Shown here: positions 3,825 through 55,411 of the stretch, one piece after another | How the letters are laid out: each line of letters begins with the position of its first letter | Position numbering within the stretch: the stretch's first letter is position 1 | Assembly: GCA_964606505.1 (NCBI GenBank) | Contig: CAZSGM010000001.1 | Location: forward strand, 18,859 to 82,858 | DNA: 64,000 nt | Source: an uncultured Lachnospiraceae bacterium | Lineage (GTDB): Bacteria > Bacillota > Clostridia > Christensenellales > UBA1242 | Reading direction: 5' to 3' | Made by a program: the position numbers and the translations under genes | Notes under the pieces: model-generated | Databases searched by the model: none | Seen by the model: only the letters and a program-made list of their open reading frames with translations | What the model was told of the DNA's origin: nothing

Positions 3825-3851
3825 AATCGACCTCAAATACAATTAAATGCA

Positions 3852-3881
3852 ATCAAGGATTGCAAAACTGCAATCCTTGAT
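3852..3881 (-). terminator. perfect 13-bp-stem hairpin between the precursor gene and the downstream transferase (attenuator or transcript stabiliser)
   Basis: ATCAAGGATTGCA-AAAC-TGCAATCCTTGAT. The weak T tract on the minus strand suggests partial read-through. Confidence 0.55.
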
Positions 3882-3895
3882 ATCAAAAACACAAA

Positions 3896-4012
3896 TTAGT
3901 TATTGTCTTCTCCTTTCTCGCCATATTCAGCTGAACCATTACGCTCGCCGTCTTGCGGTTTAGATTTTTTACTCATAGTAATTATTTCGATTTTTCCTAT
4001 TTTTTTAATCAT
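3896..4012 (-). CDS. candidate lasso-peptide precursor (38 aa)
   Basis: Below the ORF-track size cutoff. GAGGAGG lies 8 nt upstream of the ATG. Peptide MIKKIGKIEIITM/SKKSKPQDGERNGSAEYGEKGEDNN has Thr at -2, Ser1 and Asp8. It sits directly downstream of the B1 gene. Confidence 0.55.
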   Translation of the reverse strand: MIKKIGKIEIITMSKKSKPQDGERNGSAEYGEKGEDNN

Positions 4013-33013: not shown

Positions 33014-34059
33014 AATGCCATCTCCTTTACATATTCATCTTGAAAGATTTAAGTTTTAATATTATATATGAATTTCACTTTTTTGTCAAGTCATTTAGCG
33101 ATATTTTTAAGTAAATGCGCCAAACTTATTTTTTTGCGCCACCCCGCGCTAAAAAACAACCTCAATCGACGGCGCAAAACAGCCATCTTTTCTCACCTAA
33201 ACATTTGCAGTTTCTCCACCCTCAGGTTTTGCCAAAAAGTCAGTATTTTCGGGCTTTTTAGCGTGTAGTTATCCACAATTGTTCAACTTTTGTGGATAAC
33301 TTTACACGCTTTAAAAATCAATAAAGCTAACACTTTTAAAAAGCATTATTTAAAGCTCGCTAAACCTCGTAAAATCCACACTTTAAAACTCTTTCTTTCT
33401 TAAAAAATCAGTAAAAACATCAACGGCGAAGCAAGAAAAAACTCTGCCGTTTTATCCTTGCGTAGGTTTAAGTTTTAAATGTACTAACCACCCTCACGGC
33501 TTAGACTAAGTACAGGTAAAACCTGCTTTTTTTACATTCAAATGCACACGACTGAGTTTTTAAACTTTTTGTTGAGCGTTGCGCAAAACATCCAACGCGC
33601 CCAATGCCGCAGCCCTAATGCAGGCAAACTTCCCACACCACACCACAGTGGACAAACCCAACGCACAACGCCGCTGTGGATAAGTCCGAGCGCAAGACTT
33701 AACGCTACTGTGAACAACTCATAAAAGTATACTACACATTTATGAAACTACACAATTGTGGATAACCGCTAAAACACTCACTACAACCGCCTCTGCCCCT
33801 CCCTAAAGCTAGACAAGACGACCTCCCATTTCAAACATCACTCTCACTAATTTTATTATTTAGCAAGCTCAAATATTCACACTAAAAAGCTTCGCGATAA
33901 ACCACTACAAAAAAAAGCGGAAAAAGTCCGCAGCAACTAAAAAAAAACTTAGAAGCCTACACTCTTTCACGCTTTGAAACTTATGTTATCCGCTTAAACA
34001 GAAACTGCCCGATTTCCACAAATGTGGATAACTCAACTTTTTGCCCCACAAGAAAAATG

Positions 34060-34073
34060 GTTAAGTACTTAAC
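34060..34073. promoter_or_regulatory. perfect 14-bp palindrome GTTAAGTACTTAAC (unassigned binding-site candidate), copy a
   Basis: Minus-strand context is AAAAATAGTTAAGTACTTAACCATTTTT. A DnaA box lies 29 bp away. Confidence 0.6.
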
Positions 34074-34346
34074 TATTTTTGCCGCCAAAAAACATACGCG
34101 TATTACACAATTTACCCTATGATACTCTTGCAAAAACATAGTATTTATGCGGGGTGTAGGCATTTAGGCACAATACAAATTCTTATCTGCATCCACTGAT
34201 TGCGTTAACAAGTTTTTGGGGAGTTATCCACATTCTCAATAAAAACAGTCTTTTATACCCCCCTGTGGAAGAGATGTGAATAAATCGTCTACAAGTTTAA
34301 ATTGTAAACATTTTATTGCCTTCAAGTTTAAATATTTTAAAACATT

Positions 34347-34355
34347 TAGTAGTAG
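34347..34355 (+). other. TAGTAGTAG, a candidate DnaA-trio element next to an AT-rich direct repeat
   Basis: Three 5'-TAG-3' triplets 22 nt from the box pair at 34378/34400. Upstream, CAAGTTTAAAT occurs twice (34291-34345). Confidence 0.35.
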
Positions 34356-34516
34356 TGGTGTTTGTTACAAAAAACACTTATCCACAATTGTTTAACATAT
34401 GTGGATAAGTAATTTTAGAAAAATTTGCACCCAAAATTTTTGCCGCCAAAAAGCAGAAAATTCAAGAGAATGTTCCACTTTAAAACTGCAAAATATGAGC
34501 CTAACAAATGTGCATT

Positions 34517-35635
34517 TTAGTTAATTATGCGCACAGGAAGGATGAGGAAAAGATACCCGTCCCCTTCAAATGGCTTAATAATGCACGGAGCGATTGGAGT
34601 TGTAAAATTAAGTGTTATAAACTCGTCGTTTACCACCTTCAAGCACTCGATAAAATAGCGTGAGTTAAACGCCGTTGTCAAATCAACGCCATCCAAAGAA
34701 ATTGTAACATTTTCGTGGATGTTTCCAATTTCACTGTTCGACGAAATAGCCAAAGTTTTGTCCTTAATTTCAAACTTTGCTATGTTGTTTCTTTCGACGC
34801 GCGCAAGCAAACTTGTTCTGTCGAGCGCCTCTTCAAGTTGTTTTTTGTTTACGGTCGTAACCGTAGTAAAATCACCAGACGTAATGAGGTTATTATAATT
34901 AATAAACTCCCCGTCTAGCAAGCGAGAAATGATGACCGCGCCCTCTTGCTCAATCATCACGTATTGCTTTTGGAAAAATACTTTTATGCTCTCGTCTTTG
35001 TCGTCGATAACCTTGGTTATTTCAGACAAACTCTTAGCAGGAACGACAAACTGCGCCTCGCTAGTTGTGTACAAAATTGGCTTTTTAGCTATACTCATCC
35101 TGTACCCATCGAGTGCGACAACATTGACCTTATCGCTAAAAACTTCAAAGAAGCACCCCTTGAATAGTGGCCTTGCGTCGTCAAGCGAAACGGAAAAAAT
35201 CGTCTTGTTAATAGCGTCCACAAAGTCGTCTTTGCTAATCTCAAAGTACTGCTCGTTTGAAATCTTTTGTATATCAGGAAACTCCTCAGCATTCAAGCAT
35301 TGCATATAACCCACACTGTCAGTATATGCAAGCTTCAACTGATTGTTTTCACTAACTTCCAAAACAATTTGCTCGTTTGTAAGTTTTCTAACATACTCAC
35401 TAAAGAACTTACCGGGAACAACAACCGTTCCTTCAAGTTTTACGTCAGCCTTAATCTTTGTCTCAATCATCAACTCAAGATCTGTTGCGCTCAACTTCAA
35501 GCAATCAGCCTCAGCAACCAACTTAATTCCTTCCAAAATCGGATTAGTTGTTCTAGTTGCAGTTGCTTTGATAACCTTCAAAACTGCATCAGCGAGGTCA
35601 AGCCCATCGCATATTACTTTCATTCGGGTATTCAT
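34517..35635 (-). CDS. dnaN: DNA polymerase III beta sliding clamp
   Basis: Start set to ATG (MNTRMKVICDG), 5 nt after AGGAG. Three-domain clamp length (372 aa) with C-terminus LFLILPVRI. Confidence 0.9.
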   Translation of the reverse strand: MNTRMKVICDGLDLADAVLKVIKATATRTTNPILEGIKLVAEADCLKLSATDLELMIETKIKADVKLEGTVVVPGKFFSEYVRKLTNEQIVLEVSENNQLKLAYTDSVGYMQCLNAEEFPDIQKISNEQYFEISKDDFVDAINKTIFSVSLDDARPLFKGCFFEVFSDKVNVVALDGYRMSIAKKPILYTTSEAQFVVPAKSLSEITKVIDDKDESIKVFFQKQYVMIEQEGAVIISRLLDGEFINYNNLITSGDFTTVTTVNKKQLEEALDRTSLLARVERNNIAKFEIKDKTLAISSNSEIGNIHENVTISLDGVDLTTAFNSRYFIECLKVVNDEFITLNFTTPIAPCIIKPFEGDGYLFLILPVRIIN

Positions 35636-35795
35636 AGTTTCTCCTAAAAAATTCAAATCATTTTAGCATACTTTCGTTTTTCTGTAAAGCATTTTTGCCC
35701 AACTTTTCAAAATTTCTTCATTTTTTTTGGCGCTACAGGAGTTGAATTTTTTATTTTTTTTAAATAATAACCTGTATTATTATTGTCTGTGCAAA

Positions 35796-35956
35796 TGTGG
35801 ATAAATTTTGACGTAACCACAATATATTGTGTCATAACTCCTTAAAATCAACCACAGTATACAATATATAGTTTTTCAAAATGTGCATATCTCGGTGGAG
35901 AATTCCACATTTTTTGCACATTTAACTAACATTTTCAATTTTTCGGGTGTGGATAA
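35796..35956. promoter_or_regulatory. two perfect DnaA boxes (oriC part 2, dnaN-proximal)
   Basis: TGTGGATAA at 35796-35804 and 35948-35956. Confidence 0.75.
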
Positions 35957-35988
35957 CCCGATTTTGAACCGCGTTTTTTGGAAAAATA

Positions 35989-36002
35989 GTTAAGTACTTT
36001 AC
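35989..36002. promoter_or_regulatory. 13/14 variant of the palindrome (GTTAAGTACTTTAC), copy b
   Basis: Same 5' flank as copy a (GTTTTTTGG..AAAAATAGTTAAGTACT). A DnaA box lies 33 bp upstream. Confidence 0.5.
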
Positions 36003-36059
36003 GAAATTTGGCGAAAAATATTTTTTTTTGACTTTTTCAAAAAAATCAATTAAATTTGG

Positions 36060-36087
36060 TTGACTTATTTTTGAAAATCGCTATAAT
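36060..36087 (+). promoter_or_regulatory. orphan SigA-like promoter firing into the AT-rich array
   Basis: TTGACT (36060-36065), a 16-nt spacer, TATAAT (36082-36087). No ORF downstream. Confidence 0.4.
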
Positions 36088-36120
36088 ATAAAATTTTATT
36101 ATTTTTAGTTAATTTAGTTT

Positions 36121-36149
36121 TTAGAATTTAAAAAAATTTTAAATTCTAA
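36121..36149. repeat. 13-bp-arm perfect inverted repeat
   Basis: TTAGAATTTAAAA-AAA-TTTTAAATTCTAA. Confidence 0.85.
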
Positions 36150-36239
36150 ATTCGCGGAAGTTCGGCTCTTCAAAATAAACGGAACCTAAAATTGTAGCGT
36201 CTTTTAGTTGAACTCATCGCCAGTTGCGCAAGTTTTTTT

Positions 36240-37115
36240 GTGTGTTATTTAAGTACTAATAATATGTTAAGCTTGTTTATTTAATTGTTACTCATAATTT
36301 AGTAAGTAATTTTATTTTATTTCAGCACTTACTTATAATCATTACTTAAATACTATTAATACAATCTTTACTTAATTATAATATATAATATTGCAAATAA
36401 TAAGTCAAGTAATTTTATATTATTAATTAATAATTATTTATTGTCTAAATTATTTTGGTTATACTAATATAATATTAAGTACTTTTATTAATGTTATACT
36501 TATTTTATTATAAGTACTAACTTAATACACTTACTTATTTTTTTATTCGTACTAATTATAAGGGGTTGCATAATGCAGCGTGCTATCGCTTTTTATACTC
36601 ATACAATATAGTGAGTAATTATACTTATATTTTTTACTTATAATATTATAAGTTAATATTAATTTTTATATTTAAAATAATATGCATATATAGTACTATT
36701 ATATTATTACTAATACTATATTAAGTATTAATATGTTTTGTTTACTTTAATAATAGATATTACTAAAAATATTAAAGTACTTATAAAATGTTAAGTATTT
36801 TATATATTATTTTGTTATTATATAATTATATAACGTATATATATTAATACTTATTATATTATAAAAACTATATTATTTATTATACTCATAATATAATAAG
36901 TACTTAATTATTATACTACTTATAATATTATATAAACTAACATATTACTGTATTTATAATATTATAAGTTTAGATATATAATTATATCTTTACTTAATAT
37001 AAGTACTAAAATAGATAAGTACTTACAATATTATAAGTACTTATTTTATTTAAGTACTAAAATAATATAACGTATTTAAATATATATTTATTCTTATTAT
37101 ATTATTAGTACTAAA
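36240..37115. repeat. AT-rich AGTACT-core iteron array, block 1
   Basis: AGTACT starts at 36252, 36478, 36513, 36692, 36776, 36899, 37002, 37018, 37036, 37053 and 37107, mostly within (A/T)TAAGTACT(A/T)A. Confidence 0.8.
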
Positions 37116-37494
37116 ATAAGACAATGGGCAAACAAAATGCCGACTAAATTTTGCCTGATACAGTTTTATTTGGTTCATATGCTTATTTTGTGTCTACTGC
37201 ACCATACCCATTTGCAACGGCGCACACGATGTCGTGGCAGATTATACCATACTCCATTGCGGTTATGCAATTATTTTCTGCGTTGCAATCAATTGCTGCA
37301 TTGTAACCAATCAACATACTACAACTAATCGGCGTACCGCAACCAATTATGGCAGCACAACTGATAGCCGAACTGACAACTAAACCGACAGATGAACTAA
37401 CAGTGAACCGACAGCTAAGTTACAATCAACTCCATGTTGTTGTTAGCAATCAAACTTAAATTAACTATTATGCGACAATTAACTATTCCGCGAT

Positions 37495-38200
37495 ACTTAA
37501 TTAAAATTTACATGCAACTTATTTTATAAGTAATAATAAGTTATTAGGTACAAATATTATTTAAGTACTTAACATATTATTTGTATTAGCTAATAGTAAT
37601 AGTTAAAAATATTATATGTACTTATTATATATGAGTAAATAAAATATTGTAATACAAATATAATGTGTTAACATAAATTATTTTGAGTATTAAATTAATA
37701 TTAGTACTTAAAATATTATTAAAAATAAAATAATATGTATAAGTCTATTATATTATCATAAAATTATTGGAGTACTAATAATAAAGTAAGTACTATTATT
37801 AAGTATAATAAATATTATTAGTACTAAAAAATTTATGTACTAACAATTTAATAAGTACTAAATTATGTAAATACTGATAAATTAATAAGTACTTAAATTA
37901 TATAAGTAAAAAAATGTAAAACGTACGAATTATACATAAGTACAAAAAATATATAACGTAATAATATTATATGATTACGAATAATATAGAATGAACTAGT
38001 ATAAATAAGTACTAATAACTTAATAAGTACTAAAATATTGTAGTACTAATAATAAAATAAGTACTACAACTAAATAGGTACTAGAAATATATTGATATAA
38101 TAATATATTGTACGTAAAAATGTTGTTCGTACTAGAAATTATAACACTAAAAATAGTTTAAGTACGTATAAATTAAATTAGTAATAAAATTATAAGTGCC
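37495..38200. repeat. AT-rich AGTACT-core iteron array, block 2
   Basis: AGTACT starts at 37564, 37703, 37771, 37789, 37820, 37854, 37888, 38008, 38026, 38042 and 38060. The site at 37560-37573, TTTAAGTACTTAAC, matches the palindrome at 13/14 positions. Confidence 0.8.
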
Positions 38201-38435
38201 AATGTAAAAACAAAAGATGCGTAATTATATAATTTATTTTGAGTAGAAACAACAAGACAAGAACTGCATAAAAATTAATTGCGTACCATATGAAATTAAA
38301 TCACAAATGAAAGTTTAATACTCATCAAATAAATTTTAGACAATTAAGTAAAAAAAATATAGCATCACTAAAAACACACTATTTCAAATACAAAAATAAA
38401 AAGCAAAAAATCCATAATTCATTACAATTCTAGAC

Positions 38436-38464
38436 TTGACTAATTTGTGGATAAGTGGTATAAT
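38436..38464 (+). promoter_or_regulatory. dnaA promoter with a perfect DnaA box in the spacer
   Basis: TTGACT (38436-38441), a 17-nt spacer containing TGTGGATAA (38446-38454), then TATAAT (38459-38464). The dnaA ATG is 7 nt after the -10. Confidence 0.7.
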
Positions 38465-38470
38465 CAAGCT

Positions 38471-39829
38471 ATGGATAATAAGATTTTGAAAGGTTGGGAA
38501 AACGTCCTAACACGAATGGCTACAAACATTTCAGCCGTCAGTTTTGATTTATGGTTAAAACCGCTTGAGGTAATCGACTTAAAAGACAACGCAATCATTC
38601 TATCAGCACCAAGTGTTGTTACAAAAAGTCAAATTTTAAAAAATTTTAAGGAAGAACTTTTGAACGCAATTTCTGCAGAGTTTGAGAATGTTATGGGTTT
38701 TGAGCTGTTTACACCTGAAGAGAAGGAAGAGTACTTAAAATACAATAAACCGTTTGAAGAGGAAATACAGCAATCGACTGCGCCTAACTCGCTCGACAAC
38801 TTCAACCCAAAGTACACGTTTGATAACTTCGTCGTCGGCAAAAGTAACCAGTTTGTTTACACGGCGTGCAGGGCGGTTGCGGAAAACCCCGCAATGCGTT
38901 TTAACCCGCTGTTCATTTACGGGGGCGTTGGACTTGGAAAGACCCACTTGTTGCACGCGATAGGTAATTACATAAAAAACAACCTAAAAGACAAAAAAAT
39001 CGTCTACGTAACTTGTGAAAACTTTATCAACGACTATGTTTATGCGCTCAAATTCAACTCATCAAACGATACAATCATAACAAACTTTAGAGAGAAATAC
39101 CGCAACGTTGACGTTCTAATGGTTGACGACATACAGTTCATTTCTGAGAAAAAAGCGTTGCAAGAGGAATTTTTCCACACATTTAACGACCTTTACCAAA
39201 AAAACAAGCAAATTATCATTAGCTCAGACCGACCACCGCGCGAAATTTCAGCACTTGAGGATAGATTGAAATCGAGGTTTGGAAGCGGACTTATTCAAGA
39301 TATACAAAAACCTGACCTTGAAACCCGAATTGCTATCTTGGAGAAAAAGGCAACAATTGAAAATTACAACATCGAAAAAGACGCGATTAAGTTTATCGCA
39401 GAAAGAGTTGACTCAAACATTCGTGAAATGGAAGGGTTCCTATCAAAAGTTATTTTCTTTAGTTCGCTTCTAGGTAAAGATGTGGCAACAGTTGATGACG
39501 CTCAAGAAGCACTTAAAAATTACATTGAAACAAACAAAGAATCATTAAGCACTGACAGGATTATTCACGTCGTTTGTGATTACTTCAATGTTACAAAAGA
39601 CGACCTAATTGGCAAAAAGAAAACAAAAGAAATTGTAACCGCTCGCCAAATTTGTGTTTATCTCATAACAGAAATGATGGATTTACCATTGACGGCAATT
39701 GGTGAAATTTTCGGCGGAAGAGACCATACAACAATAATTCATTCACGCGATAAAATCGAAGAAATGGTTAGAAATAAGACAAACGTAAATGTTGCGGTTA
39801 ACGACCTTAAAGCAATGCTTGAAAACTAA
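38471..39829 (+). CDS. dnaA: chromosomal replication initiator protein DnaA
   Basis: Walker A GGVGLGKTHLLHAIG, sensor motifs, and C-terminal HTH ..GRDHTTIIHSRDKI. The ATG at 38471 is preferred over the track GTG at 38447, which lies inside the promoter. Confidence 0.92.
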   Translation: MDNKILKGWENVLTRMATNISAVSFDLWLKPLEVIDLKDNAIILSAPSVVTKSQILKNFKEELLNAISAEFENVMGFELFTPEEKEEYLKYNKPFEEEIQQSTAPNSLDNFNPKYTFDNFVVGKSNQFVYTACRAVAENPAMRFNPLFIYGGVGLGKTHLLHAIGNYIKNNLKDKKIVYVTCENFINDYVYALKFNSSNDTIITNFREKYRNVDVLMVDDIQFISEKKALQEEFFHTFNDLYQKNKQIIISSDRPPREISALEDRLKSRFGSGLIQDIQKPDLETRIAILEKKATIENYNIEKDAIKFIAERVDSNIREMEGFLSKVIFFSSLLGKDVATVDDAQEALKNYIETNKESLSTDRIIHVVCDYFNVTKDDLIGKKKTKEIVTARQICVYLITEMMDLPLTAIGEIFGGRDHTTIIHSRDKIEEMVRNKTNVNVAVNDLKAMLEN

Positions 39830-43867: not shown

Positions 43868-44171
43868 TTCATGTTAGTGTATAAGTTGCAACTATAAGTT
43901 GTTTTTAAGTATATATTTCAGTTGGCAGGGAGTTCGAAGGCGTCTTTATTTGTAGAAAGAATGGTTTTACGTAAATTGGTATAATTTTATATTTTTTGTA
44001 TATTTTGTCGAAATTTCGCCGCAATTTGGGCGTTATAACCCGTCAAAAGTAGGGGTAAGGTTGCATTTTTTAGGATAAAGTCAAGTATTTGTGTGTCCGA
44101 GGGGTGCTTTGTGAATTTACCCCCACTTTTGTGCATTTTTTAACGCGATTTATCTTAATACACCTAAAATA

Positions 44172-44185
44172 GTTAAGTACTTAAC
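44172..44185. promoter_or_regulatory. perfect palindrome GTTAAGTACTTAAC, copy c
   Basis: Context AAAATAGTTAAGTACTTAACCATATTTTT. Confidence 0.6.
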
Positions 44186-46315: not shown

Positions 46316-46365
46316 TATGCTCAATACCATTAATATGTATTCAATGTGTACTTATTTAAAGTTTA

Positions 46366-46395
46366 AAGATTGACAAATGTCAATCTTTTTTATTT
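46366..46395 (+). terminator. intrinsic terminator after parB
   Basis: AAGATTGAC-AAAT-GTCAATCTT followed by a T run. Confidence 0.75.
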
Positions 46396-46969
46396 TCGCC
46401 CCGTATTTATCATATAATACGCCTATGTGGGCGCAAATATATAAATACGGAAGCATTTAAAAAGCTTTTAAGTGAAATTATTTTAATAAGCAAAGAAATT
46501 TCAGTATGAGAACTAAATTCAATATAAATAAAACGCTGATTCTCATCAAAAAATAGCGTTTTATTTGTTGTTTTTTTTAAAAACTCACATTGTTATGCGA
46601 TACACCGTCAATTTGATTAATATCCTAACTTAAATGTATTATTGCTTAAATGGGACACCTAAGCAATAATAACCTATAAAAATAATAATTTAATTGATAT
46701 TTAAGGCAATGTCTGCCGGATTTGGATTGAATTCTAGTAAATACAACAAGAATGGCAACCGTGTTTGTTGAGCTGTTGTTTTAATGGGGGTAAAGCTACA
46801 TAGTGATAAACTTGTTAATATGTGTTGTGGACAACGACATTTCCTATAGTGCATTAACCACGTAGAGGCAAGATAATTAAATAAATAAAACATGTAGCAG
46901 TGGTGGCAATCAAGTAGATATTGCAGCAATTATGTGCTATAGTTAAGTAATTGCGCAGAGTTAATAGTT

Positions 46970-46985
46970 TGTTTCACGTGAAACA
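46970..46985. promoter_or_regulatory. parS site 1 (perfect consensus)
   Basis: TGTTTCACGTGAAACA. Confidence 0.9.
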
Positions 46986-47559
46986 ATGTTGATTGCGGTT
47001 GTAGGCGTTGGGTGTTTTCATATTAGAATAGGACAAACAGGTAGGGCTTGGCATTTTGTAAGGTGTTTTTATTGCGCAGTGTACACTGAGTGAAACATAT
47101 GTTTAATTAGAATAAGTATGCTTAATAGGACAATTACGCTATGTATACTATGAGTTCAAATAAAATAAATAGATTATACATAATAACATACACGTAGCAT
47201 GCGGCATATAGTGTATAGCACGCAATATAATACATAATGAATAATAGACAATACAAATAGAATATATAATATTTAATGTATAATATGTAATTTATAATAC
47301 ACATTATACAACATAGAGGATATAAAATGTAAAAATGCTACGCAGTAATGGCTGAATGCTATAACGTATATGGTATTGCTATGCTTACATTGTATTTTGC
47401 AAGTTATAAAACAATTGTTGTAATATGTAATATATAGCATATAGAACACACTATATTAAATAATCCGCTTTATATTATTACTACTGTTGTGTTTAATGGG
47501 TGAACACTGCTGATAATTGATTTTGCAATTGACTACATATTGTGCAGTTTTCGTGAGGA

Positions 47560-47575
47560 TGTTTCACGTGAAACA
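47560..47575. promoter_or_regulatory. parS site 2 (perfect consensus)
   Basis: TGTTTCACGTGAAACA. Confidence 0.9.
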
Positions 47576-48081
47576 AAAGAAATAAGAATGGATGTGTCTT
47601 TGGCAAAAAGTGTGCATTTATGCAGGTTTTATAGGTGTTTATGCTGCACTTATTCTGCATTTAAGATAAATACAATTGAAGTTTTGTAAAATAAACGCAT
47701 AGGCTAAGATAGTTTATATTAAAACAAATATATAAAATAAATAATGAAGCATTAATCATAAAAAATGTTTAATGTTAGTATCTAAACAGTTTGTCTTGCT
47801 GCGAGGTTTAAGTATTATATATTCTTTTATTGTTTGCGTGCTTTAATTGAATGCGTGCTCAACATAAATGATTAACCCGAGCATAAAAATGAATGCAATT
47901 TCAGTGGTATGTAAGTATATAAAGCGTTCGAGTGTTTAAGTAAAGAAAAAAGACGTTGCAAAATAGTCGCATAATGAGGTTTAAATGTGTTCCGCGATTA
48001 GTGTTTTTAATTACGAGTTGTATTACAGGTTGATTTGCCAAAATCGCATAAAATCTACCTTTTTGCGTCTTTTTTTAACCT

Positions 48082-48097
48082 TGTTTCACGTGAAACA
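48082..48097. promoter_or_regulatory. parS site 3 (perfect consensus)
   Basis: TGTTTCACGTGAAACA. Confidence 0.9.
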
Positions 48098-48949
48098 GTT
48101 GTTATTTGGGGTGTTATTTGAGAAAAAGTAGGACGATTTGACGTATATTTTTTTACTGTGGCTGTGGGTTCACTGCCCTATTTATATTGCGTCAAAACTT
48201 ACGTAAAAAATGTTGATAAGGTGTTCAAATTGTGCTTATCAACGGCGAAATAATTAATAAGCAGTAAATCGAATAAAAAATGACCTTAACAGGCTTTAAT
48301 ACATCAAGTGATGTTTGATTTTGTTGAAAGTTGCCAATTTGCAAACTATTTTTCTTGAAATATAGAAGTAATTTGCGATATTATCCCCCGCTATTCTTCA
48401 AAATAACCCCTAAAGTGGCAAAAATCAAGTTTTTAACAATTTAATCTAATTATATGACATATTTTGTTTTATTTGGCGGTAAGTTAGTATTTATTTCTGC
48501 TTTATATGGGGAATTATTCGCGTTATTTATTCATAATGGTGTTAATTTTATCTTATTTTGGGCTAATTTGCTTATTTTGAGTTTATTTTTTAAAAAAAAT
48601 AAACAATTACGCCATAATTTTATGCAAATAATCATATAAAACGAAAATTTAATAATTATTATAATTTTTAAATATATTTTTTATTATTTTATTATTTTTT
48701 TTGCATTTTAGTTAAAAAAAATGACATTTTTGATGTGGATTTGTTTATATTAAGTCTCAAAAATCGCAAATTATGGTAAAATTGGATATAATTAGCATTA
48801 TATTGCTTGAATAAACGGCTTTTGCATTTTTTATAATGCCCTTAGTCATGTGAATTGTGTTTCTATGCTTTATTGAGACGCATATTTTTGTGTTTTTGCA
48901 CTGGAATTTTGGCAAATTGCGCCTTTTTATTGTTAAAAAATAATAGTAG

Positions 48950-49013
48950 TTATCCACAATTATATGCACAATTTGGGTGGTTTCAGGATTATTAGTGGGC
49001 AAAGTTATCCACA
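48950..49013. promoter_or_regulatory. two perfect DnaA boxes, same orientation
   Basis: TTATCCACA at 48950-48958 and 49005-49013. Confidence 0.65.
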
Positions 49014-49377
49014 TTGAATTAATGAAAATGTGCATAAGTTTGAAATATGTTAATTACTTTTTAATAAATTTAGGTTTATTAATATGCGGAAATGGGTACA
49101 AAAAGTGCAGTGAAATGCTGCAAATGCTAGAATTTAATGATTTTTGTCCTATTTCAATATACTTATTGTTAATATTTGAAATATTTAATAAAAATGGCGT
49201 ATTTACTGACGTCTTTAATTGTTGAATTTTTCTATTTTTTATTATTTTTGGCAAATTATTGTATTAATTTATCATTAGATATGTGGAAAAATGGCTTTGA
49301 TTATGGCTTTTGTGTATGTATAAAGTTTTAGCTTTATTAATTTATCAACCATATGTTGACAAAATGGGCAAAAAATA

Positions 49378-49415
49378 GTTAAGTACTTAACCAAAAAAAT
49401 AGTTAAGTACTTAAC
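49378..49415. promoter_or_regulatory. tandem pair of perfect palindromes GTTAAGTACTTAAC, copies d1 and d2
   Basis: Located at 49378-49391 and 49402-49415, centres 24 bp apart. Context AAAAAATAGTTAAGTACTTAACCAAAAAAATAGTTAAGTACTTAACT. Confidence 0.65.
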
Positions 49416-49805
49416 TAAAATTGAGCGTAAAAATTCGCTGAGGGATGAAAATGTTGTCAACATAAGTTTTGGATGTGTTGATGTATTTGTAGGTTTAACA
49501 TTGTAACTGCGTTTTTGAGTACAATGTTGTAATTGCGTTAATCCGTGTCTAGATTGAGGCGATTGTTACTTAGATTTCAACAATTTACTCGCGTATTGTT
49601 GCAGTTAGGTGGTAGTTTATTCGTGTATTTAGCTCGATTATTTTGGTTTGGGGTTGGGTTACTTTACTCTTTGGTTTGGGTACACATTTTTTGCTATATT
49701 ATTACTGGACAGGATAATTTTGTTATAGTTTTAAACTAGATTGTGATGGTTTGGGGCTGCATAAGCGAGGCGCGGGCTCGATTGCGACAAGTAACATATA
49801 ATTAC

Positions 49806-49834
49806 TTGACATTTTTCAGAAAAACGCGTATAAT
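49806..49834 (+). promoter_or_regulatory. consensus SigA promoter of greA
   Basis: TTGACA, a 17-nt spacer, TATAAT. Confidence 0.75.
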
Positions 49835-50023
49835 ATATACGCAAAATATGGGCAGAGTTGCTTTTTGTGAGCACTTTTAATGGTAGTTGGTCAGTAGCAA
49901 ATCATTTTTTGTAATGAATGCGTATGTTTACGCGTTTCTTTGTAGCGGCGCAAATTTGAGGCGTTGGGTGGTTTGTGATTGAGTTTTGACTGGTGAGAGT
50001 TCCACAGCGGCGATGTTCGCGCA

Positions 50024-50049
50024 AGTGCCAGAACGGCACTTTTGTTTTA
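50024..50049 (+). terminator. terminator-like hairpin inside the greA 5' leader
   Basis: AGTGCC-AGAAC-GGCACT followed by TTTGTTTTA, ending 5 nt before the GGAGG SD. Confidence 0.5.
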
Positions 50050-50066
50050 TTATGGAGGTTATTTAA

Positions 50067-50534: not shown

Positions 50535-50614
50535 GTTTGCTTGCAAACAACGTTTGTACGAGTTTTATAGTGTTAAATAGATAATAATGGTGGCGCATTT
50601 GCCGTGTTAGTATG

Positions 50615-50649
50615 TAGACAAATTCAAAAATGGATTTGTCTATTTTTTT
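50615..50649 (+). terminator. intrinsic terminator downstream of greA
   Basis: TAGACAAAT, a 10-nt loop, ATTTGTCTA, followed by T7. Confidence 0.65.
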
Positions 50650-50838
50650 GAAATGGGCTTGTCAAACTTTCTATAATGGTGCAAAATGCAAATGTGGCTT
50701 TCGGTAAAAAACAATAATAAAACAAAATAGATTTTAAATAACAATAATATATTTTAAGTAAAAATAAAATTTGATAGGCAGAGATTTTATGTCTAAAAAA
50801 TGGCAGTATTAGTTTTTTATGTGCAAAATAATGGCGTG

Positions 50839-50956
50839 AAAAAATATATTTTTTAAGGGCGAAAATTTAGTTTGAAAAAATATATTTTAACTATAAATAT
50901 TGTGCGACGAAAATATTTTTCAGTGTATAAATATCGTGCAAGGAAAATGTATTTTT
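50839..50956. repeat. A/T-tract palindromes and a ~33-bp direct repeat
   Basis: AAAAAATATATTTTTT (50839-50854). TATAAATATTGTGCGACGAAAATATTTTT (50891-50920) versus TATAAATATCGTGCAAGGAAAATGTATTTTT (50924-50956). Confidence 0.7.
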
Positions 50957-52007
50957 ATACAATAAAATTGTCAATGAAAATAGCGCAATAGGAATACAGA
51001 AATTGAGAAAAATAATAAGCAAAACGAGTAAAAAAAAGAGTAAAAAACATGCAAAAAATTTTAAGTGAAAAAATAGGTAAAATACAAGTAAAAAATTAAG
51101 TAAAATAATAAACGGAAAAAATGCAAAAAATATGTGTTTAAATTTAATTTTTTGCGTAAAATTATGGCGTAACTATATATAAAAAATTGAGTGTTCAATA
51201 ATTAAAAATGGCAAGAGAAAATACGGATAAATACAAATAAAAATCTGGAATATTTTTAATAAATAAAATTGGGATGAAATTTATTTTTTTAGTCTGCGAA
51301 AAATAGTTTTACAGTGGTTTATGTTGTATATATTTTAGTATTTTATTGAATAAATAAAACTATTTTATAAATCCATAAAAATGCAGTATAGCTGCAAAAT
51401 TATGCAGCTTACCTGTTAAAATTTGCGTGAAAGCTGTTAAAAATTGCGGGTATGCTGCATTTTACGTGCAAATAATTGTGTAAAATATAAATTTGATATA
51501 TATTTTAATTGTAAATTATATTTTTTTATAATATTTTTTAATTAAATAATAAATATTTTCGTTATATTTTTTTGACGTTGTAAAATTATATTTTTTTGCA
51601 GGTAAATTTATTAATTAATTTGTGATTAAAATAAAATGAATTAATGCGCAATTTTATTTGATTTTATCGGTTTATATTTTAGTGTTATTTTAGGTGTAAT
51701 TTTCAGTATTTTTTATTTTGCGGGGGGAATTGTGATTTTATTTATTTTTGACAGCGTTTATTCTTAATAAAAAGTGTTATTTCTTCGCCGCTTTAATTAT
51801 TTTTTTAGCGATGATTTTTCGCGGAAATTTTAATAAAAAAAATAAGGAATATTTTGTGTTAATAAAAAATAAAAAATCAATATTCATATGCATATTTATA
51901 TTTTGTTTATTTTTCAAATTTAATTATTTAAGGACGCAGAAATTTACTGCGTCCTTAAAAGTTGAAATGATAATTTTTTTTGCGAGTGCATTCAACTTGC
52001 GTGCACG

Positions 52008-52125
52008 GCAAACTAGCCCACTATTGTAAGTAGCGCACACAACAGATTAGTGTACACAGCAAACTAGCGCGCCGTGTTAAATGACGACCGCGACAAACTA
52101 GCGCGCGTAACTAACTAGCGCGCGG
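52008..52125. repeat. four dispersed copies of AACTAGC(G/C)C(G/A)C; the last contains the stop codon of the 427-aa ORF
   Basis: CAAACTAGCCCAC, CAAACTAGCGCGCC, CAAACTAGCGCGCG, CTAACTAGCGCGCGG. Confidence 0.7.
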
Positions 52126-53702: not shown

Positions 53703-53779
53703 CGCGGGGTAGAGCAGTTTGGCAGCTCGTCGGGCTCATAACCCGAAGGTCGTTGGTTCAAATCCAGCCCCCGCTACCA
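53703..53779 (+). tRNA. initiator tRNA-fMet (CAU)
   Basis: CGCGGGG acceptor with a 1-72 mismatch and three G-C pairs closing the anticodon stem (TCGGGCTCATAACCCGA). CCA encoded. Confidence 0.9.
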
Positions 53780-53789
53780 TTTTTTTTAT

Positions 53790-53866
53790 GGCGGTGTAGC
53801 TTAGCTGGTTATAGCGTCCGGTTCATACCCGGAAGATCAAAGGTTCGAATCCTTTCACCGCTACCA
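53790..53866 (+). tRNA. elongator tRNA-Met (CAU)
   Basis: GGCGGTGTAGCTTAGCTGG... with anticodon loop TTCATAC. Closely resembles Bacillus elongator tRNA-Met as recalled. CCA encoded. Confidence 0.8.
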
Positions 53867-53888
53867 GCGTGGGCGCATTGCCCAAGTT

Positions 53889-53963
53889 GGCCCTATGGTC
53901 AAGCGGTTAAGACACCACCCTTTCACGGTGGTATCGTGGGTTCGAATCCCGCTAGGGTCACCA
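53889..53963 (+). tRNA. tRNA-Glu (UUC)
   Basis: GGCCCTATGGTCAAGCGGTTAAGACACCACCCTTTCACGGTGG... Cloverleaf checked by hand. CCA encoded. Confidence 0.88.
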
Positions 53964-55146: not shown

Positions 55147-55350
55147 AATATTAGAGTACATTACAACTAACAATAAAAAATGCGAAATTAACGGCTGCGA
55201 GATATACGAAAAAAGTATGTAAGCAGTCTTTTTTAATGGAAAAATAAAAAAAATAACATTTTTTTTATAAACAAGCAAAAAATATTTGGAATAAAATAAT
55301 AAATGTGTTAAAATTGCATAAAATACACACAGTAAGGAGTGATAAAAATG

Positions 55351-55364
55351 GTTAAGTACTTAAC
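55351..55364. promoter_or_regulatory. perfect palindrome GTTAAGTACTTAAC, copy e
   Basis: Lies 6 nt upstream of the G12 tract, with imperfect DnaA boxes 29-39 bp downstream. Confidence 0.6.
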
Positions 55365-55370
55365 TAAATT

Positions 55371-55382
55371 GGGGGGGGGGGG
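55371..55382. repeat. G12 homopolymer tract
   Basis: Twelve consecutive G in a low-GC genome, 240 nt upstream of the GLUG protein gene. Confidence 0.9.
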
Positions 55383-55392
55383 CGTCTCAGAC

Positions 55393-55411
55393 TAATCCAC
55401 AATGTGGACAA
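55393..55411. promoter_or_regulatory. inverted pair of one-mismatch DnaA boxes
   Basis: TAATCCACA-A-TGTGGACAA. Confidence 0.4.

Follow-up and report, generated by a model that had tools for sequence, protein, structure and literature searches.

A strain-variable array of AGTACT-core repeats between oriC and dnaA in uncultured gut Clostridia: a possible landing pad for a DNA-binding protein

Bacterial origins are viewed as compact sets of DnaA boxes together with an unwinding element. Accessory sites that lie among the DnaA boxes and influence initiation are known at oriC, such as the Spo0A boxes of B. subtilis, the CtrA sites of Caulobacter, SeqA/GATC, the sites for IHF and Fis, and titration loci of the datA type. 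Plasmids and phages carry iteron and Rep-titrating arrays, i.e., P1 incA, the 17-bp iterons of RK2 and the λ ori iterons inside gene O, as well as centromere arrays, which include sopC of F (12 repeats of 43 bp), parC of R1 (two sets of five iterons flanking a core) and parC of pSK41. Other sites serve chromosome organisers, i.e., the Noc NBS, the RacA ram and the SlmA SBS (GTGAGTACTCAC). The RBMs of RefZ are also origin-proximal sites of a chromosome-organising protein (10.1101/459685).

The locus described here is the dnaN-dnaA spacer of a 64-kb stretch of DNA, which was analysed as a whole and is referred to as the window. The gene dnaN (34517–35635, minus strand; DNA polymerase III beta clamp, Pfam DNA_pol3_beta domains 1–3) is transcribed away from dnaA (38471–39829, plus strand), which is inverted relative to the sister species, where the order is dnaA> oriC2 dnaN>. 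Both genes are supported by Pfam and the cumulative GC skew has its minimum at 37–38 kb, in agreement with the flanking genes and the skew flip described in the initial annotation. That annotation also counted only three perfect DnaA boxes in this spacer. The count is correct (35796, 35948 and 38446), but the apparent scarcity is an artefact of considering a single spacer, since the rpmH-dnaN spacer carries an oriC1-like cluster (33269–34408) with eight perfect boxes and one with a single mismatch to TTATCCACA; the rpmH-dnaN spacer of the sister species also has DnaA boxes. On the other side of dnaN, the oriC2 core (35740–35804) is formed by an A+T tract (35744–35770), a DnaA-trio-like GTATTATTATTG triplet repeat (35774–35785) and a DnaA box (35796–35804), and it shares homology with the spacer between dnaA and dnaN in the sister species (L093 and L098) up to 35809–35835. 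Its assignment as a trio/DUE is made by analogy with the clostridial oriC2 (PMC7561715). The whole module of box, triplets and AT tract that is homologous to the sister oriC2 lies at 35740–35960. Given that the trio/DUE module adjoins dnaN, the bipartite oriC flanks this gene; from the rpmH-dnaN boxes and the oriC2-homologous module, the array described below is an accessory next to a normal bipartite oriC, and not the origin itself.

Several elements lie between this module and dnaA. The DnaA box at 35948–35956 is 32 bp away from a one-mismatch palindrome, GTTAAGTACTTTAC (35989–36002), and in the related locus L158 the box-palindrome pair is repeated, at 8601 and 8642, with its spacing unchanged. 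A strong promoter-like site on the plus strand (TTGACT-16-TATAAT, 36060–36087) is directed into the array and is followed by a palindrome or hairpin, AGAATTTAAAAAAATTTTAAATTCT (36123–36147); the promoter-like site and hairpin (36060–36147) are kept in strain L084 and in the other species L158 and L100. Homology with the sister species picks up again at 38434, next to the dnaA promoter (38436–38470, plus strand; TTGACT-17-(TG)TATAAT), which has the DnaA box 38446–38454 in its spacer and a -10 that ends 6 nt before the ATG. No TTATCCACA box with up to one mismatch was detected between 35957 and 38445, and a DnaA-box cluster or datA-like titration locus was therefore rejected as the identity of the array.

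The array consists of two AT-rich blocks, neither of which has an ORF of 40 aa or more, so that these parts of the spacer are gene-free as had been proposed. Block A (36240–37115, plus strand, GC 14.0%) contains 11 AGTACT and one CGTACT, within TAAGTACTWA cores in one orientation; it is a degenerate tandem array on a 17.1-bp register, with a small and conserved GC-normal patch at about 36555–36600. Block B (37495–38200, plus strand, GC 15.6%) has 11 AGTACT and nine variants with the register and orientation of block A, and includes the one-mismatch palindrome TTTAAGTACTTAAC at 37560–37573. The island between them (37116–37494) is of normal composition (GC 39%) and shows its own short direct repeats; it lacks a homologue in all other loci and databases searched, and has no Rfam match and nothing unusual in its fold. 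One further AGTACT is located at 35993, outside both blocks.

The 11 hexamers per block claimed initially were recovered at exactly the same positions, whereas dinucleotide-preserving shuffles of each block averaged about 0.95 copies and never exceeded 5–6, i.e., an enrichment of approximately 11-fold over composition-matched sequence. In the entire window AGTACT is found 38 times versus 9.3 expected, and the 15 copies located in the 61 kb outside the spacer represent the chance level. The roughly ten one-mismatch versions also stand, as ten NGTACN variants were counted, giving at least 32 GTAC cores across about 1.6 kb. Aligned on the core, these 32 sites have T at -3 in 26, A at -2 in 23 and A at -1 in 24; downstream, T is found at +4 in 27, A or T at +5 in all 32, and A at +6 in 26. 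The information is confined to about 10 bp per unit (TAAGTACTWA), and the spacers, with about 0.1 bit per position, are at the level of small-sample noise. Spacing is more regular than had been claimed: all pairwise core distances of up to 125 bp are multiples of about 17.1 bp, with a Rayleigh R of 0.85 versus a maximum of 0.45 among 500 random placements. The repeats are biased in orientation (13 GTACTAA versus 3 TTAGTAC), and TRF detected periods of 17, 34 and 51–53 bp. The assembly of the region was reproduced independently: the Logan contig L085 is 100% identical over the entire spacer, contigs L081–83, L086 and L088–90 match up to their breaks within the blocks, and strain L084 (97% identical) has the same architecture with indels. 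These data show a genuine, non-random array of regular spacing that is restricted to the origin spacer.

AGTACT is also the centre of a longer palindrome, of which the full site is TRGTTAAGTACTTAACYA (14–18 bp). The 14-mer is present in the window in five perfect and two one-mismatch copies, versus 0.04 expected. None of the seven falls inside a gene, and each has a DnaA box or a box-like sequence no farther than about 400 bp away (about 40 bp in three cases); two of the seven fall inside the dnaN-dnaA spacer. The perfect palindrome GTTAAGTACTTAAC (34060–34073), whose extended context AAAATGGTTAAGTACTTAACTATTTT is also palindromic, is 28 bp from the DnaA box 34023–34031, and its ortholog in L157, L158 and L159 has one mismatch and is likewise beside DnaA boxes. 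A perfect copy upstream of parA (44172–44185) constitutes a phylogenetic footprint: it is identical in L157, L158 and L093 and has a single central change in L100 (GTTAAGCACTTAAC), i.e., it is unchanged in four of five loci that span four species-level lineages, while the surrounding AT-rich DNA has diverged. Upstream of greA there is a tandem pair of perfect palindromes (49378–49415) with centres 24 bp apart; both copies and the distance between them are kept in L100 and L157, that is, in three lineages including the window, and only the central base varies. The remaining perfect copy (55351–55364), in a probable integrated island, is about 30 bp from a DnaA-box-like pair (TAATCCACA and TGTGGACAA), so that the pairing of box and palindrome at about 30 bp recurs. 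In the conserved single-copy sites the variable base is the central C of GTAC, and the outer GTT/AAC positions, missing from the array units, are invariant. No record of the motif was found in the literature or databases searched, and Pfam/PHROG annotation of the ORFs of the 64-kb window revealed no gene for a DNA-binding protein of the palindrome. In a metagenomic contig, L122, the perfect 18-mer was observed four times at a 42-bp period.

Arrays are present in three species-level lineages, all with dnaA inverted and in the same spacer, and sister species replicate without any array. In the comparison with relatives advised by the initial annotation, the same core is found in the spacer of two further lineages. 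The arrays are genus-specific. Significant enrichment was found for AGTACT in L100 and L158 and for GTAC in L100, L157 and L158; the arrays of L157 and L158 again follow a register, of about 16.9 bp (R 0.75–0.80), and those of L158 are much shorter. Third codon positions differ by 0.39–0.50 among the three array-bearing lineages and the arrays are not alignable between them; L157 and L158 arrays differ by 11% plus indels. The preferred flank is GTACTAA in the window and GTACTTA in L158, where the orientation bias is reversed or absent. Since the flank differs between lineages, the shared feature is the palindrome core and not one ancestral unit.

Divergence within the species was evaluated by comparing the window with a single strain, L084, i.e., two strains only. 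In the AGTACT cores 4 of 83 positions have changed, compared with 69 of 1177 elsewhere in the blocks. Overall block divergence is 5.8%, and that of the third codon positions of neighbouring genes 3.5–7.8%; on the other hand, the truly constrained neighbours have changed far less, the island by 0.26% (one change in 379 bp) and the left part of oriC by 0.66%. Strain L084 has a 141-bp insertion, and a deletion of 322 bp (positions 37776–38097) in which nine AGTACT sites were lost. Changes from AT to GC and from GC to AT are balanced (35 versus 30), as expected for unconstrained DNA. Individual array sites are not under constraint in this comparison, in which, with two strains, a constraint of up to about two-fold is still compatible with the data. 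About 13% of the G/C positions in the blocks have turned over even between strains that are 97% identical; because of this turnover, persistence of the core across species would need selection or continual regeneration.

These results suggest that the array is a high-capacity, low-affinity binding platform for a putative palindrome-binding protein, a reading to which we assign a probability of approximately 0.45. A landing pad for a protein had already been proposed, and it is the most economical reading because AGTACT turns out to be the core of a 14–18-bp palindrome near DnaA boxes that is kept at orthologous positions; an array built from the core of a conserved site that marks DnaA-box clusters is probably a multi-copy pad. 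The two blocks form a single, fast-turnover tandem array, in which at least 32 units reproduce only the core (TAAGTACTWA) of the full site, and which is located in the gap that the inversion of dnaA away from the oriC2-dnaN module may have opened in this genus. Full-length sites lie singly beside DnaA boxes in both halves of oriC, and further ones precede parAB and, as a tandem pair, greA. The factor may be a dimeric sequence-specific protein, presumably with a helix-turn-helix and encoded outside the window, that would grip the perfect palindromes tightly and the many core-only repeats weakly. The array could then act as a high-capacity store or nucleoprotein pad for this factor, concentrating or buffering it in the stretch from the unwinding site to the dnaA promoter. 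Selection would act on the overall number of copies and on their register rather than on any one site, and upkeep of the array by slippage or unequal exchange would explain the drift of the copies at a neutral rate and the large indels between strains. Counting against the landing pad are the lack of per-site constraint, the tolerance of large indels, the missing outer contacts of the palindrome, the lack of a candidate protein and the existence of relatives without an array.

The same observations can be read without a binding protein. The palindrome, or its core, could have been caught in the gap left by the dnaA inversion, and a unit of about 17 bp amplified by slippage or unequal crossing-over into a functionless VNTR that persists through ongoing expansion and contraction, enrichment and register being the result of common descent. 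Because the cores mutate at the synonymous-like rate of their spacers and nine sites were lost at once, a purely neutral minisatellite is the main rival, although we regard it as somewhat unlikely. Tandem periodicity with copy-number polymorphism between close strains (+141 and -322 bp in L084; L157 versus L158), a neutral-like substitution rate in the two strains, cores kept no better than spacers, a consistent strand orientation, higher-order units of 34 and 51–53 bp, a composition at mutational steady state and the absence of the array in the sister species all agree with it, as do the perfect and evidently young TAAGTACTTATAA or AATAAGTACTATAAATA arrays in unrelated AT-rich viral genomes (L184 and L210). 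Nevertheless, the motif has outlived the time of neutral decay, with the core enriched in three lineages and the register in two, in spite of near-saturated synonymous divergence, non-alignable sequence and a different preferred flank. Descent should preserve the units evenly and indels should destroy the phase, yet the spacers are randomised while core and register are kept, and the very same core is found in a palindromic site that is conserved independently. Moreover, functionless DNA of 1.6 kb is rarely retained in bacterial genomes, least of all between oriC and dnaA. A structural role, as an easily melted auxiliary unwinding zone or a sink of superhelical stress beside the DUE, with the GTAC cores incidental or a phasing punctuation, seems to us highly unlikely. 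The blocks contain the least stable duplex of the window (9 of the 15 least stable 60-bp segments of the 64 kb, with means of -0.98 to -1.00 kcal per step, compared with -1.30 overall and -1.12 in the DUE-like tract), they begin about 450 bp from the trio/DUE module, and the analogous phage repeats sit in the A+T-rich part of the origin. However, a specific 10-bp core on a fixed lattice and the full palindromes elsewhere would be left unexplained, other gene-free stretches of the window that are equally AT-rich (48.5–49 kb and 50.5–52.1 kb) are without the motif, and the L158 arrays are much shorter. For these blocks, low helical stability is accompanied neither by an adjacent DnaA-trio and box nor by positional conservation. 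The giant unwinding region raised in the initial annotation is likewise not favoured, given that the DUE-like module conserved with the sister species is a separate element and that sister species do without an array.

Two further explanations depend on who would read the repeats. The array could be the hyper-amplified chromosomal counterpart of the AAGTACT triplets of λ-O-like phage origins, recognised by an initiator or loader of winged-helix or DnaD-like type whose gene is elsewhere (in the host or a prophage), or a decoy that titrates phage initiators as in iteron incompatibility. AAGTACT occurs three times inside, or up to 70 bp from, the phrog_270 replication-initiator gene in 26 viral contigs; this initiator has an HTH_36 domain and a DnaD-like C-terminal part, and the triplet lies in the linker between domains, just past GC-rich iterons. 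Most triplets have a 17+16 spacing, which puts the copies in three reading frames and points to conservation at the DNA level, and when 80 members of the family were sampled on protein similarity only, 13 had the triplet. The phage repeats share with the window the AGTACT(A/G)A flank and the 16–18-bp spacing, and the full sites of the window adjoin DnaA boxes as the phage repeats adjoin iterons. On the contrary, hmmsearch detected no initiator homologue in the window or related loci (best E 0.8) and no rep gene is adjacent; phage origins have three or four copies, not more than 30; the triplet probably belongs to the A+T-rich part of the origin and not to the initiator iterons, and its core varies within the family. 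The phage contigs checked have mostly a GC of 45–60% and are therefore probably not from Clostridia phages, and the motif itself served as the seed of the viral scan, so that the resemblance is partly by construction; we consider this explanation improbable. Even less credible, and the weakest of those considered, is that GTAC or AGTACT is a methyltransferase target in a sequestration cluster of the SeqA type, comparable to the GATC cluster in the oriC of E. coli, or that transcription of the array from the 36060 promoter yields an extended leader of dnaA or a sponge RNA in which UAAGUACUAA motifs recur. The excess of a short palindromic core at the origin and close to the dnaA promoter, a strong conserved promoter aimed into the array and repeats in one orientation on that strand would fit. 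But the window has no methyltransferase or SeqA-like gene, the conserved unit is of 10–18 bp rather than 4–6 bp, and the variable central C of the single-copy sites is the opposite of the prediction for methylation; for the RNA version, the orientation bias is reversed or absent in L158 and the analysis gave no sign of transcription or RNA structure.

If the array does bind a protein, this would be a chromosomal origin with a plasmid-like array, in the style of iterons or centromeres, which varies strongly from strain to strain and is nonetheless kept across species. It would imply an origin-region factor with high-affinity sites beside the DnaA-box clusters and the parAB operon, and the 14–18-bp site would be a handle on the control of initiation or on origin positioning in the uncultured and little-studied Christensenellales-like gut Clostridia. 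A bolder and rather doubtful proposal is that the genus has a new origin accessory, either a second sequence-specific layer of origin recognition or a chromosomal decoy for the initiators of phages with AGTACT origins. In the first version, a putative factor, possibly DnaD-like or winged-helix (kin of the λ-O type), would read GTTAAGTACTTAAC about 30 bp from DnaA boxes and would load onto the strain-variable array beside the unwinding site; in both versions, the array would be a satellite-like protein pad selected for copy number and not for sequence. The AGTACT repeats of phage origins lead to the testable idea that the initiation of phages and that of the chromosome may interfere with one another or be linked by cross-talk. 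Should it prove neutral, the array would still be one of the few documented satellites of kilobase size to be tolerated between oriC and dnaA, useful as a VNTR for strain typing.

Among the described systems, iteron arrays resemble this locus in having short direct repeats of regular spacing (about 17–22 bp) and one orientation near an A+T-rich region and DnaA boxes, and in that a multi-copy array could titrate a binding protein. They differ in copy number (three to nine, versus at least 32 here) and in their setting, since the array is chromosomal, beside a DnaA-dependent bipartite oriC, with copies that evolve neutrally and conserve a 10-bp core only, not the whole unit; a Rep gene is present neither nearby nor among the ORFs of the window according to Pfam/PHROG annotation, where the profile of the phage O-like initiator gave a best E of 0.8. 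The PHROG 270 triplet shares the hexamer core, the 16–18-bp spacing, the 3' flank (A/G)A and the position beside initiator-binding repeats; it consists, however, of three copies in a coding linker with a core that varies, in contrast with more than 30 non-coding copies in a window where no matching initiator was found. Centromere arrays are similar in their tandem palindromic or short sites, in the two blocks around a unique segment and in the location near the origin, here 6 kb from parAB, with clustered origin-near repeats also in related genomes; the four 18-mers of L122 at 42 bp are reminiscent of sopC. Unlike the exact repeats of centromeres, the units here are degenerate on a 17-bp register, and they do not match the site of the adjacent ParB: the canonical parS TGTTTCACGTGAAACA is present three times (46970, 47560 and 48082) downstream of parB and is absent from the array. 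The only ParB of the window has standard ParB_N and HTH_ParB domains, and no gene for a second partition protein was found in the window. The sites of RefZ, Noc, RacA and SlmA are also 12–20-bp palindromes with an origin-proximal scatter and positions conserved across a genus, and the SlmA consensus has the AGTACT centre in common. These sites differ in sequence and occur one by one across hundreds of kb, the present analysis identified no homologous protein, and we know of no case in which they are amplified to a dense array at oriC. To our knowledge, oriC accessory sites comprise a handful of sites within a few hundred bp, with no 1.6-kb hypervariable satellite; the present locus resembles them in its extra specific sites among the DnaA boxes, paired with these at a recurrent distance.

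The spacer between dnaN (34517–35635, minus strand) and dnaA (38471–39829, plus strand), two genes confirmed with Pfam, includes blocks A (36240–37115) and B (37495–38200), with GC contents of 14.0% and 15.6%. Each block contains 11 copies of AGTACT, and the GTAC cores of the two blocks amount to 32 once ten NGTACN variants are counted in; a single AGTACT at 35993 lies in the spacer but outside both blocks. Dinucleotide-preserving shuffles of each block yielded about one copy, with a maximum of 5–6, and the 15 copies in the 61 kb of the window outside the spacer correspond to the chance level. Neither block has an ORF of at least 40 aa, and the cumulative GC skew of the window turns at 37–38 kb. 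Pairwise distances between GTAC cores of up to 125 bp fall only within 16–19, 31–35, 47–54, 65–71, 83–89, 99–105 and 117–123 bp, and a Rayleigh-type score revealed a lattice with a peak at 17.1 bp (R=0.85, against a maximum of 0.45 over 500 random placements); TRF detected degenerate periods of 17, 34 and 51–53 bp. The initial annotation had described the number of repeats and variants, their excess over composition, their rarity in the flanking DNA, their regular spacing, the gene-free character of the blocks and the skew flip at this place, and all these features hold. Only about 10 bp are conserved per unit, with the consensus T-A-A-G-T-A-C-T-(A>T)-A (32 sites), and the positions between cores carry approximately 0.1 bit, the noise level for 32 sites. 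Both blocks share a common orientation (GTACTAA 13 versus TTAGTAC 3). An assembly artefact, which that annotation had asked to be checked, is ruled out by agreeing independent assemblies and by strain variants of the same architecture: an independent contig of the locus (L085) is identical to the window over the entire spacer, several short-read contigs match it up to their break points inside the blocks, and a 97%-identical strain (L084) shows the same layout.

The origin that surrounds this array has a familiar design. The rpmH-dnaN spacer (33269–34408) contains eight perfect DnaA boxes and one with a single mismatch, so the puzzle of an origin with only three boxes was a product of viewing one spacer. 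On the other side of dnaN, the region 35740–35804 is formed by an A+T tract, a GTATTATTATTG triplet repeat and a DnaA box; clostridial oriC2 regions consist of boxes, a DnaA-trio and a DUE (PMC7561715), and this module matches that design, with its trio and DUE assigned by analogy. From the box cluster and the oriC2-like module it is therefore concluded that this is an ordinary bipartite oriC, unusual in flanking dnaN instead of dnaA, with its halves (boxes at 33269–34408; trio, DUE and boxes at 35740–35956) on either side of that gene. The spacer up to approximately 35809–35835, oriC2 module included, shares homology with the dnaA-dnaN spacer that contains the origin in the sister species. 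In three of these (L093, L098 and L099, with DnaA 71–83% identical) the order is dnaA> oriC2 dnaN> rpmH>, and the AGTACT repeats are absent. In the genus of the window dnaA and its promoter are inverted (<mnmG <mnmE <dnaA ... oriC2 dnaN>), so that dnaN and dnaA are divergent, and the array fills the new gap that this inversion left between the dnaA promoter and oriC2.

Arrays were also found in related lineages of the same genus. L100 has a DnaA 94% identical to that of the window, a third-codon-position divergence of about 0.48 and dnaA-mnmE-mnmG as in the window, and its contig ends before dnaN; its AT-rich stretch (GC 18%) holds 7 AGTACT versus 0.5 expected and 12 GTAC versus 2.9 expected. 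In L157, L158 and L159 (DnaA 94%, third-position divergence 0.39–0.49) dnaN and dnaA are divergent, and the AT-rich stretch, also with 18% GC, shows 8 AGTACT versus 0.8 in the main array of L158, and 12–14 GTAC versus 2.7. The third-position divergence between L100 and L158 is 0.50, which places them as far apart as each is from the window. The arrays of different lineages are not alignable; the register is 16.9 bp in L157 and L158 (R 0.75–0.80), and in the sparser array of L100 it is below significance. Because the favoured flank is GTACTTA in L158 and GTACTAA in the window, the lineages share the core of the palindrome and the period rather than a single ancestral unit. In L158 a further, small cluster is present between dnaN and the DUE, and GC-rich inverted repeats of 87–112 nt that are 80–94% complementary (8829–9010 and 9769–9936) enclose the main array; this enclosed segment could be invertible or form a foldback.

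Scanning the window with the best array variant revealed the 14-mer palindrome GTTAAGTACTTAAC, with five perfect copies (34060, 44172, 49378, 49402 and 55351) and two one-mismatch copies (35989 and 37560), where 0.04 copies are expected by chance. All seven are intergenic, and shared context lengthens the palindrome to TRGTTAAGTACTTAACYA, and often to a 26-bp A-run/T-run palindrome. No copy is farther than about 400 bp from a DnaA box or a box-like sequence: a perfect box is found 28 bp from the copy at 34060, 32 bp from 35989 and 304 bp from 44172, a box-like pair about 30 bp from 55351, and for the tandem copies 49378/49402 two perfect boxes are present, the nearer at about 365 bp. The parA-proximal palindrome is identical in four of five loci, which cover four species-level lineages, and differs at one central base in L100 (alignment A1), while the surrounding AT-rich DNA has diverged. 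In the greA-proximal tandem pair, sequence and 24-bp spacing are preserved across three lineages, with only the central base varying (alignment A2), and the oriC2 box-plus-palindrome pair has identical spacing in L158. Among the sister species, L093 exemplifies genomes that have single sites but no array, and L098 genomes that have neither. Judged from these alignments, the palindromes are phylogenetic footprints and bear the signature of a predicted binding site of a dimeric sequence-specific protein; AGTACT forms the core of this longer conserved palindrome. A role as RNA hairpins or intrinsic terminators is unlikely, since their stems contain only A-U pairs and no U-run follows the tandem pair.

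Several other features were observed around these sites. The element AATACCCCCACTTTTT (44120–44135), located some 50 bp upstream of the palindrome near parA, is conserved in the window, L100, L157 and L158 (alignment A1), and occurs in L093 in an inverted, weaker form. Downstream of parB, a gene-free stretch of 3.7 kb (46316–50066) contains three perfect parS sites (46970, 47560 and 48082), perfect DnaA boxes at 48950 and 49005 and the tandem palindrome pair; four parS sites are present at the equivalent place in L157 and L158. A second AT-rich gene-free region (50535–52114, GC ~0.21) has no AGTACT motif and includes a 35-bp tandem repeat at 51492–51597. An ORF of 15 codons at 55348–55395 has a good Shine-Dalgarno sequence; its start coincides exactly with the palindrome (ATGGTTAAGTACTTAAC...), and it extends into a G12 homopolymer (55371–55382), a possible phase-variable tract. 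This ORF sits in a probable integrated island located after tRNA-Met/Met/Glu (53703–53963) that also encodes DUF5131, AAA_14, ASCH and a collagen-repeat protein.

A hidden gene or a known RNA in the dnaN-dnaA spacer was discarded, given the lack of ORFs in the blocks and empty Pfam and Rfam searches: the ORF of the island between the blocks (37116–37494, 379 bp, GC 39%) has no Pfam match, the spacer has no Rfam match above noise, and the island shows no unusual fold. Promoters and terminators are not in significant excess in the spacer (38 versus 31±6), comparison with phages gave no matches, and the sole plasmid match (C. perfringens, upstream of parM) is an AT-rich chance similarity with a different repeat and no AGTACT. 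The island has hardly changed within the species (one difference over its 379 bp), and neither the related species nor any of the databases searched yielded a homologue. It contains three sets of short direct repeats (18 bp x2.6 at 37266, ~11.5 bp x5 AACYGACAG at 37370–37420, and 18 bp x2 at 37459), together with a minus-strand extended -10 near 37243–37251. A strong promoter-like site directed into block A and a subsequent AGAATTTA...TAAATTCT hairpin or palindrome are kept in three species-level lineages (window 36060–36147; L158 8713–8797; L100 1–28), and the segment 36094–36244 folds better than shuffles (z=-2.7); this element could represent a small RNA, a further protein site or a distal promoter of dnaA. 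In the dnaA promoter (38436–38473) the extended -10 TGGTATAAT ends 6 nt 5' of the ATG, hence the dnaA mRNA is probably leaderless, and a perfect DnaA box within the promoter spacer suggests that dnaA is autoregulated.

Evolutionary rates bear on what the array does. Between the window and L084, blocks A and B diverge by 5.8% and 5.7%, third codon positions of five neighbouring genes by 3.5–7.8%, the island by 0.26%, the oriC-left segment by 0.66% and the dnaA-mnmE spacer by 0.75%. Within the blocks, 4 of 83 positions changed in the AGTACT cores and 69 of 1177 in the rest, and AT-to-GC and GC-to-AT differences are balanced (35 versus 30). In addition, block A of L084 contains an insertion of 141 bp, and its block B has lost nine AGTACT sites through a deletion of 322 bp; L157 and L158 differ by 4% at third positions, but by 11% plus indels in the arrays. 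This synonymous-like divergence and the large indels therefore indicate that the arrays are hypervariable and that, in the two strains compared, single copies are without detectable purifying selection. Such rates favour the main rival explanation, a functionless minisatellite seeded by one palindromic site in the gap from the dnaA inversion; nevertheless, core and period persist across species while the spacers are randomised, and we regard this explanation as doubtful. Since the G/C positions of the blocks already differ at ~13% between the strains, the core could not have survived the approximately nine-fold larger distance between species other than by ensemble selection or continual regeneration by amplification. 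Our tentative proposal, with a probability of roughly 0.45, is that the array is a multi-copy, low-affinity platform for a protein that recognises the full palindrome. Lying between the dnaA promoter and the unwinding site, the platform would concentrate or buffer this factor there; copy number and register would be the targets of selection, and slippage or unequal exchange would maintain the array.

Repeats of this kind were also found in viruses. A scan of viral contigs for three AAGTACT 16–20 bp apart, seeded with the motif itself, returned 101 stretches, most of them coding hexapeptide repeats; 26, including those in L171, L192 and L222, are inside or at most 70 bp from genes for λ-O-like replication initiators (PHROG 270), proteins whose N-terminal part is an HTH_36 winged helix and whose C-terminal part is DnaD-like. 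The origin of these phages is contained in the initiator gene itself, in the stretch for the inter-domain linker. The triplet is located in this linker, directly after 3–7 GC-rich iterons of 15–16 bp, and its spacing is mostly 17+16, which puts the copies in three different reading frames. Among 80 PHROG 270 relatives retrieved by protein similarity alone, 13 (~16%) carry the AGTACT triplet, and other members have variant cores at the same position in three 16–18-bp repeats. AGTACT repeats at 16–18 bp are thus a genuine origin module elsewhere in nature, and in the phages they probably belong to the A+T-rich part of the origin. As the window and the related loci encode no PHROG 270-type initiator homologue, and the scan was motif-seeded, the link is one of mechanistic analogy and not of membership; it is improbable that the array is an origin module of phage type or acts as a decoy for the initiators of phages. 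Blocks A and B form the least stable duplex of the whole window, and their use as an auxiliary unwinding region or superhelical sink is judged somewhat less probable still; the lowest probability goes to a methylation or sequestration cluster, or to an RNA-level element driven by the conserved 36060 promoter. Two further viral arrays were noted: 16 perfect TAAGTACTTATAA units with a 14/19 period in an intergenic region (3775–3995) of a 222-kb phage (L184), and AATAAGTACTATAAATA at a 17-bp period in a giant-virus MAG (L210).

Regarding the protein that the proposed platform would bind, no candidate was found among the window genes with Pfam and PHROG; the annotated genes include Spo0A, ParA/ParB, ScpA/ScpB, Jag and GreA, and several ORFs have no match in either collection. 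To our knowledge, none of the consensus sequences of CIRCE, FapR, PrfA, SlmA, KorA or parS matches the palindrome. A literature search for the motif gave nothing relevant, and the 33-nt context of the palindrome showed only chance-level matches in plasmids and phages. Metagenome scans with the 18-mer returned mostly unrelated single matches. In two contigs (L111/L125) the site lies beside six DnaA boxes, in an unrelated element with 48% GC. Termite-gut contigs (L106, L108, L110, L114, L116–L119, L144, L146 and L149) contain a 47-bp satellite with CTGGTTAAGTACTTAACCA, placed within a foldback element that has long inverted flanks; this is probably DNA of the insect host, and the match coincidental. 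The only match that looks possibly related is L122, which has 23 nt (AAAAATGGTTAAGTACTTAACTA) in common with the window sites 34054–34076 and 55345–55367. At its contig end (1–165), L122 carries four perfect 18-mers at a 42-bp period, an arrangement that resembles sopC of the F plasmid.
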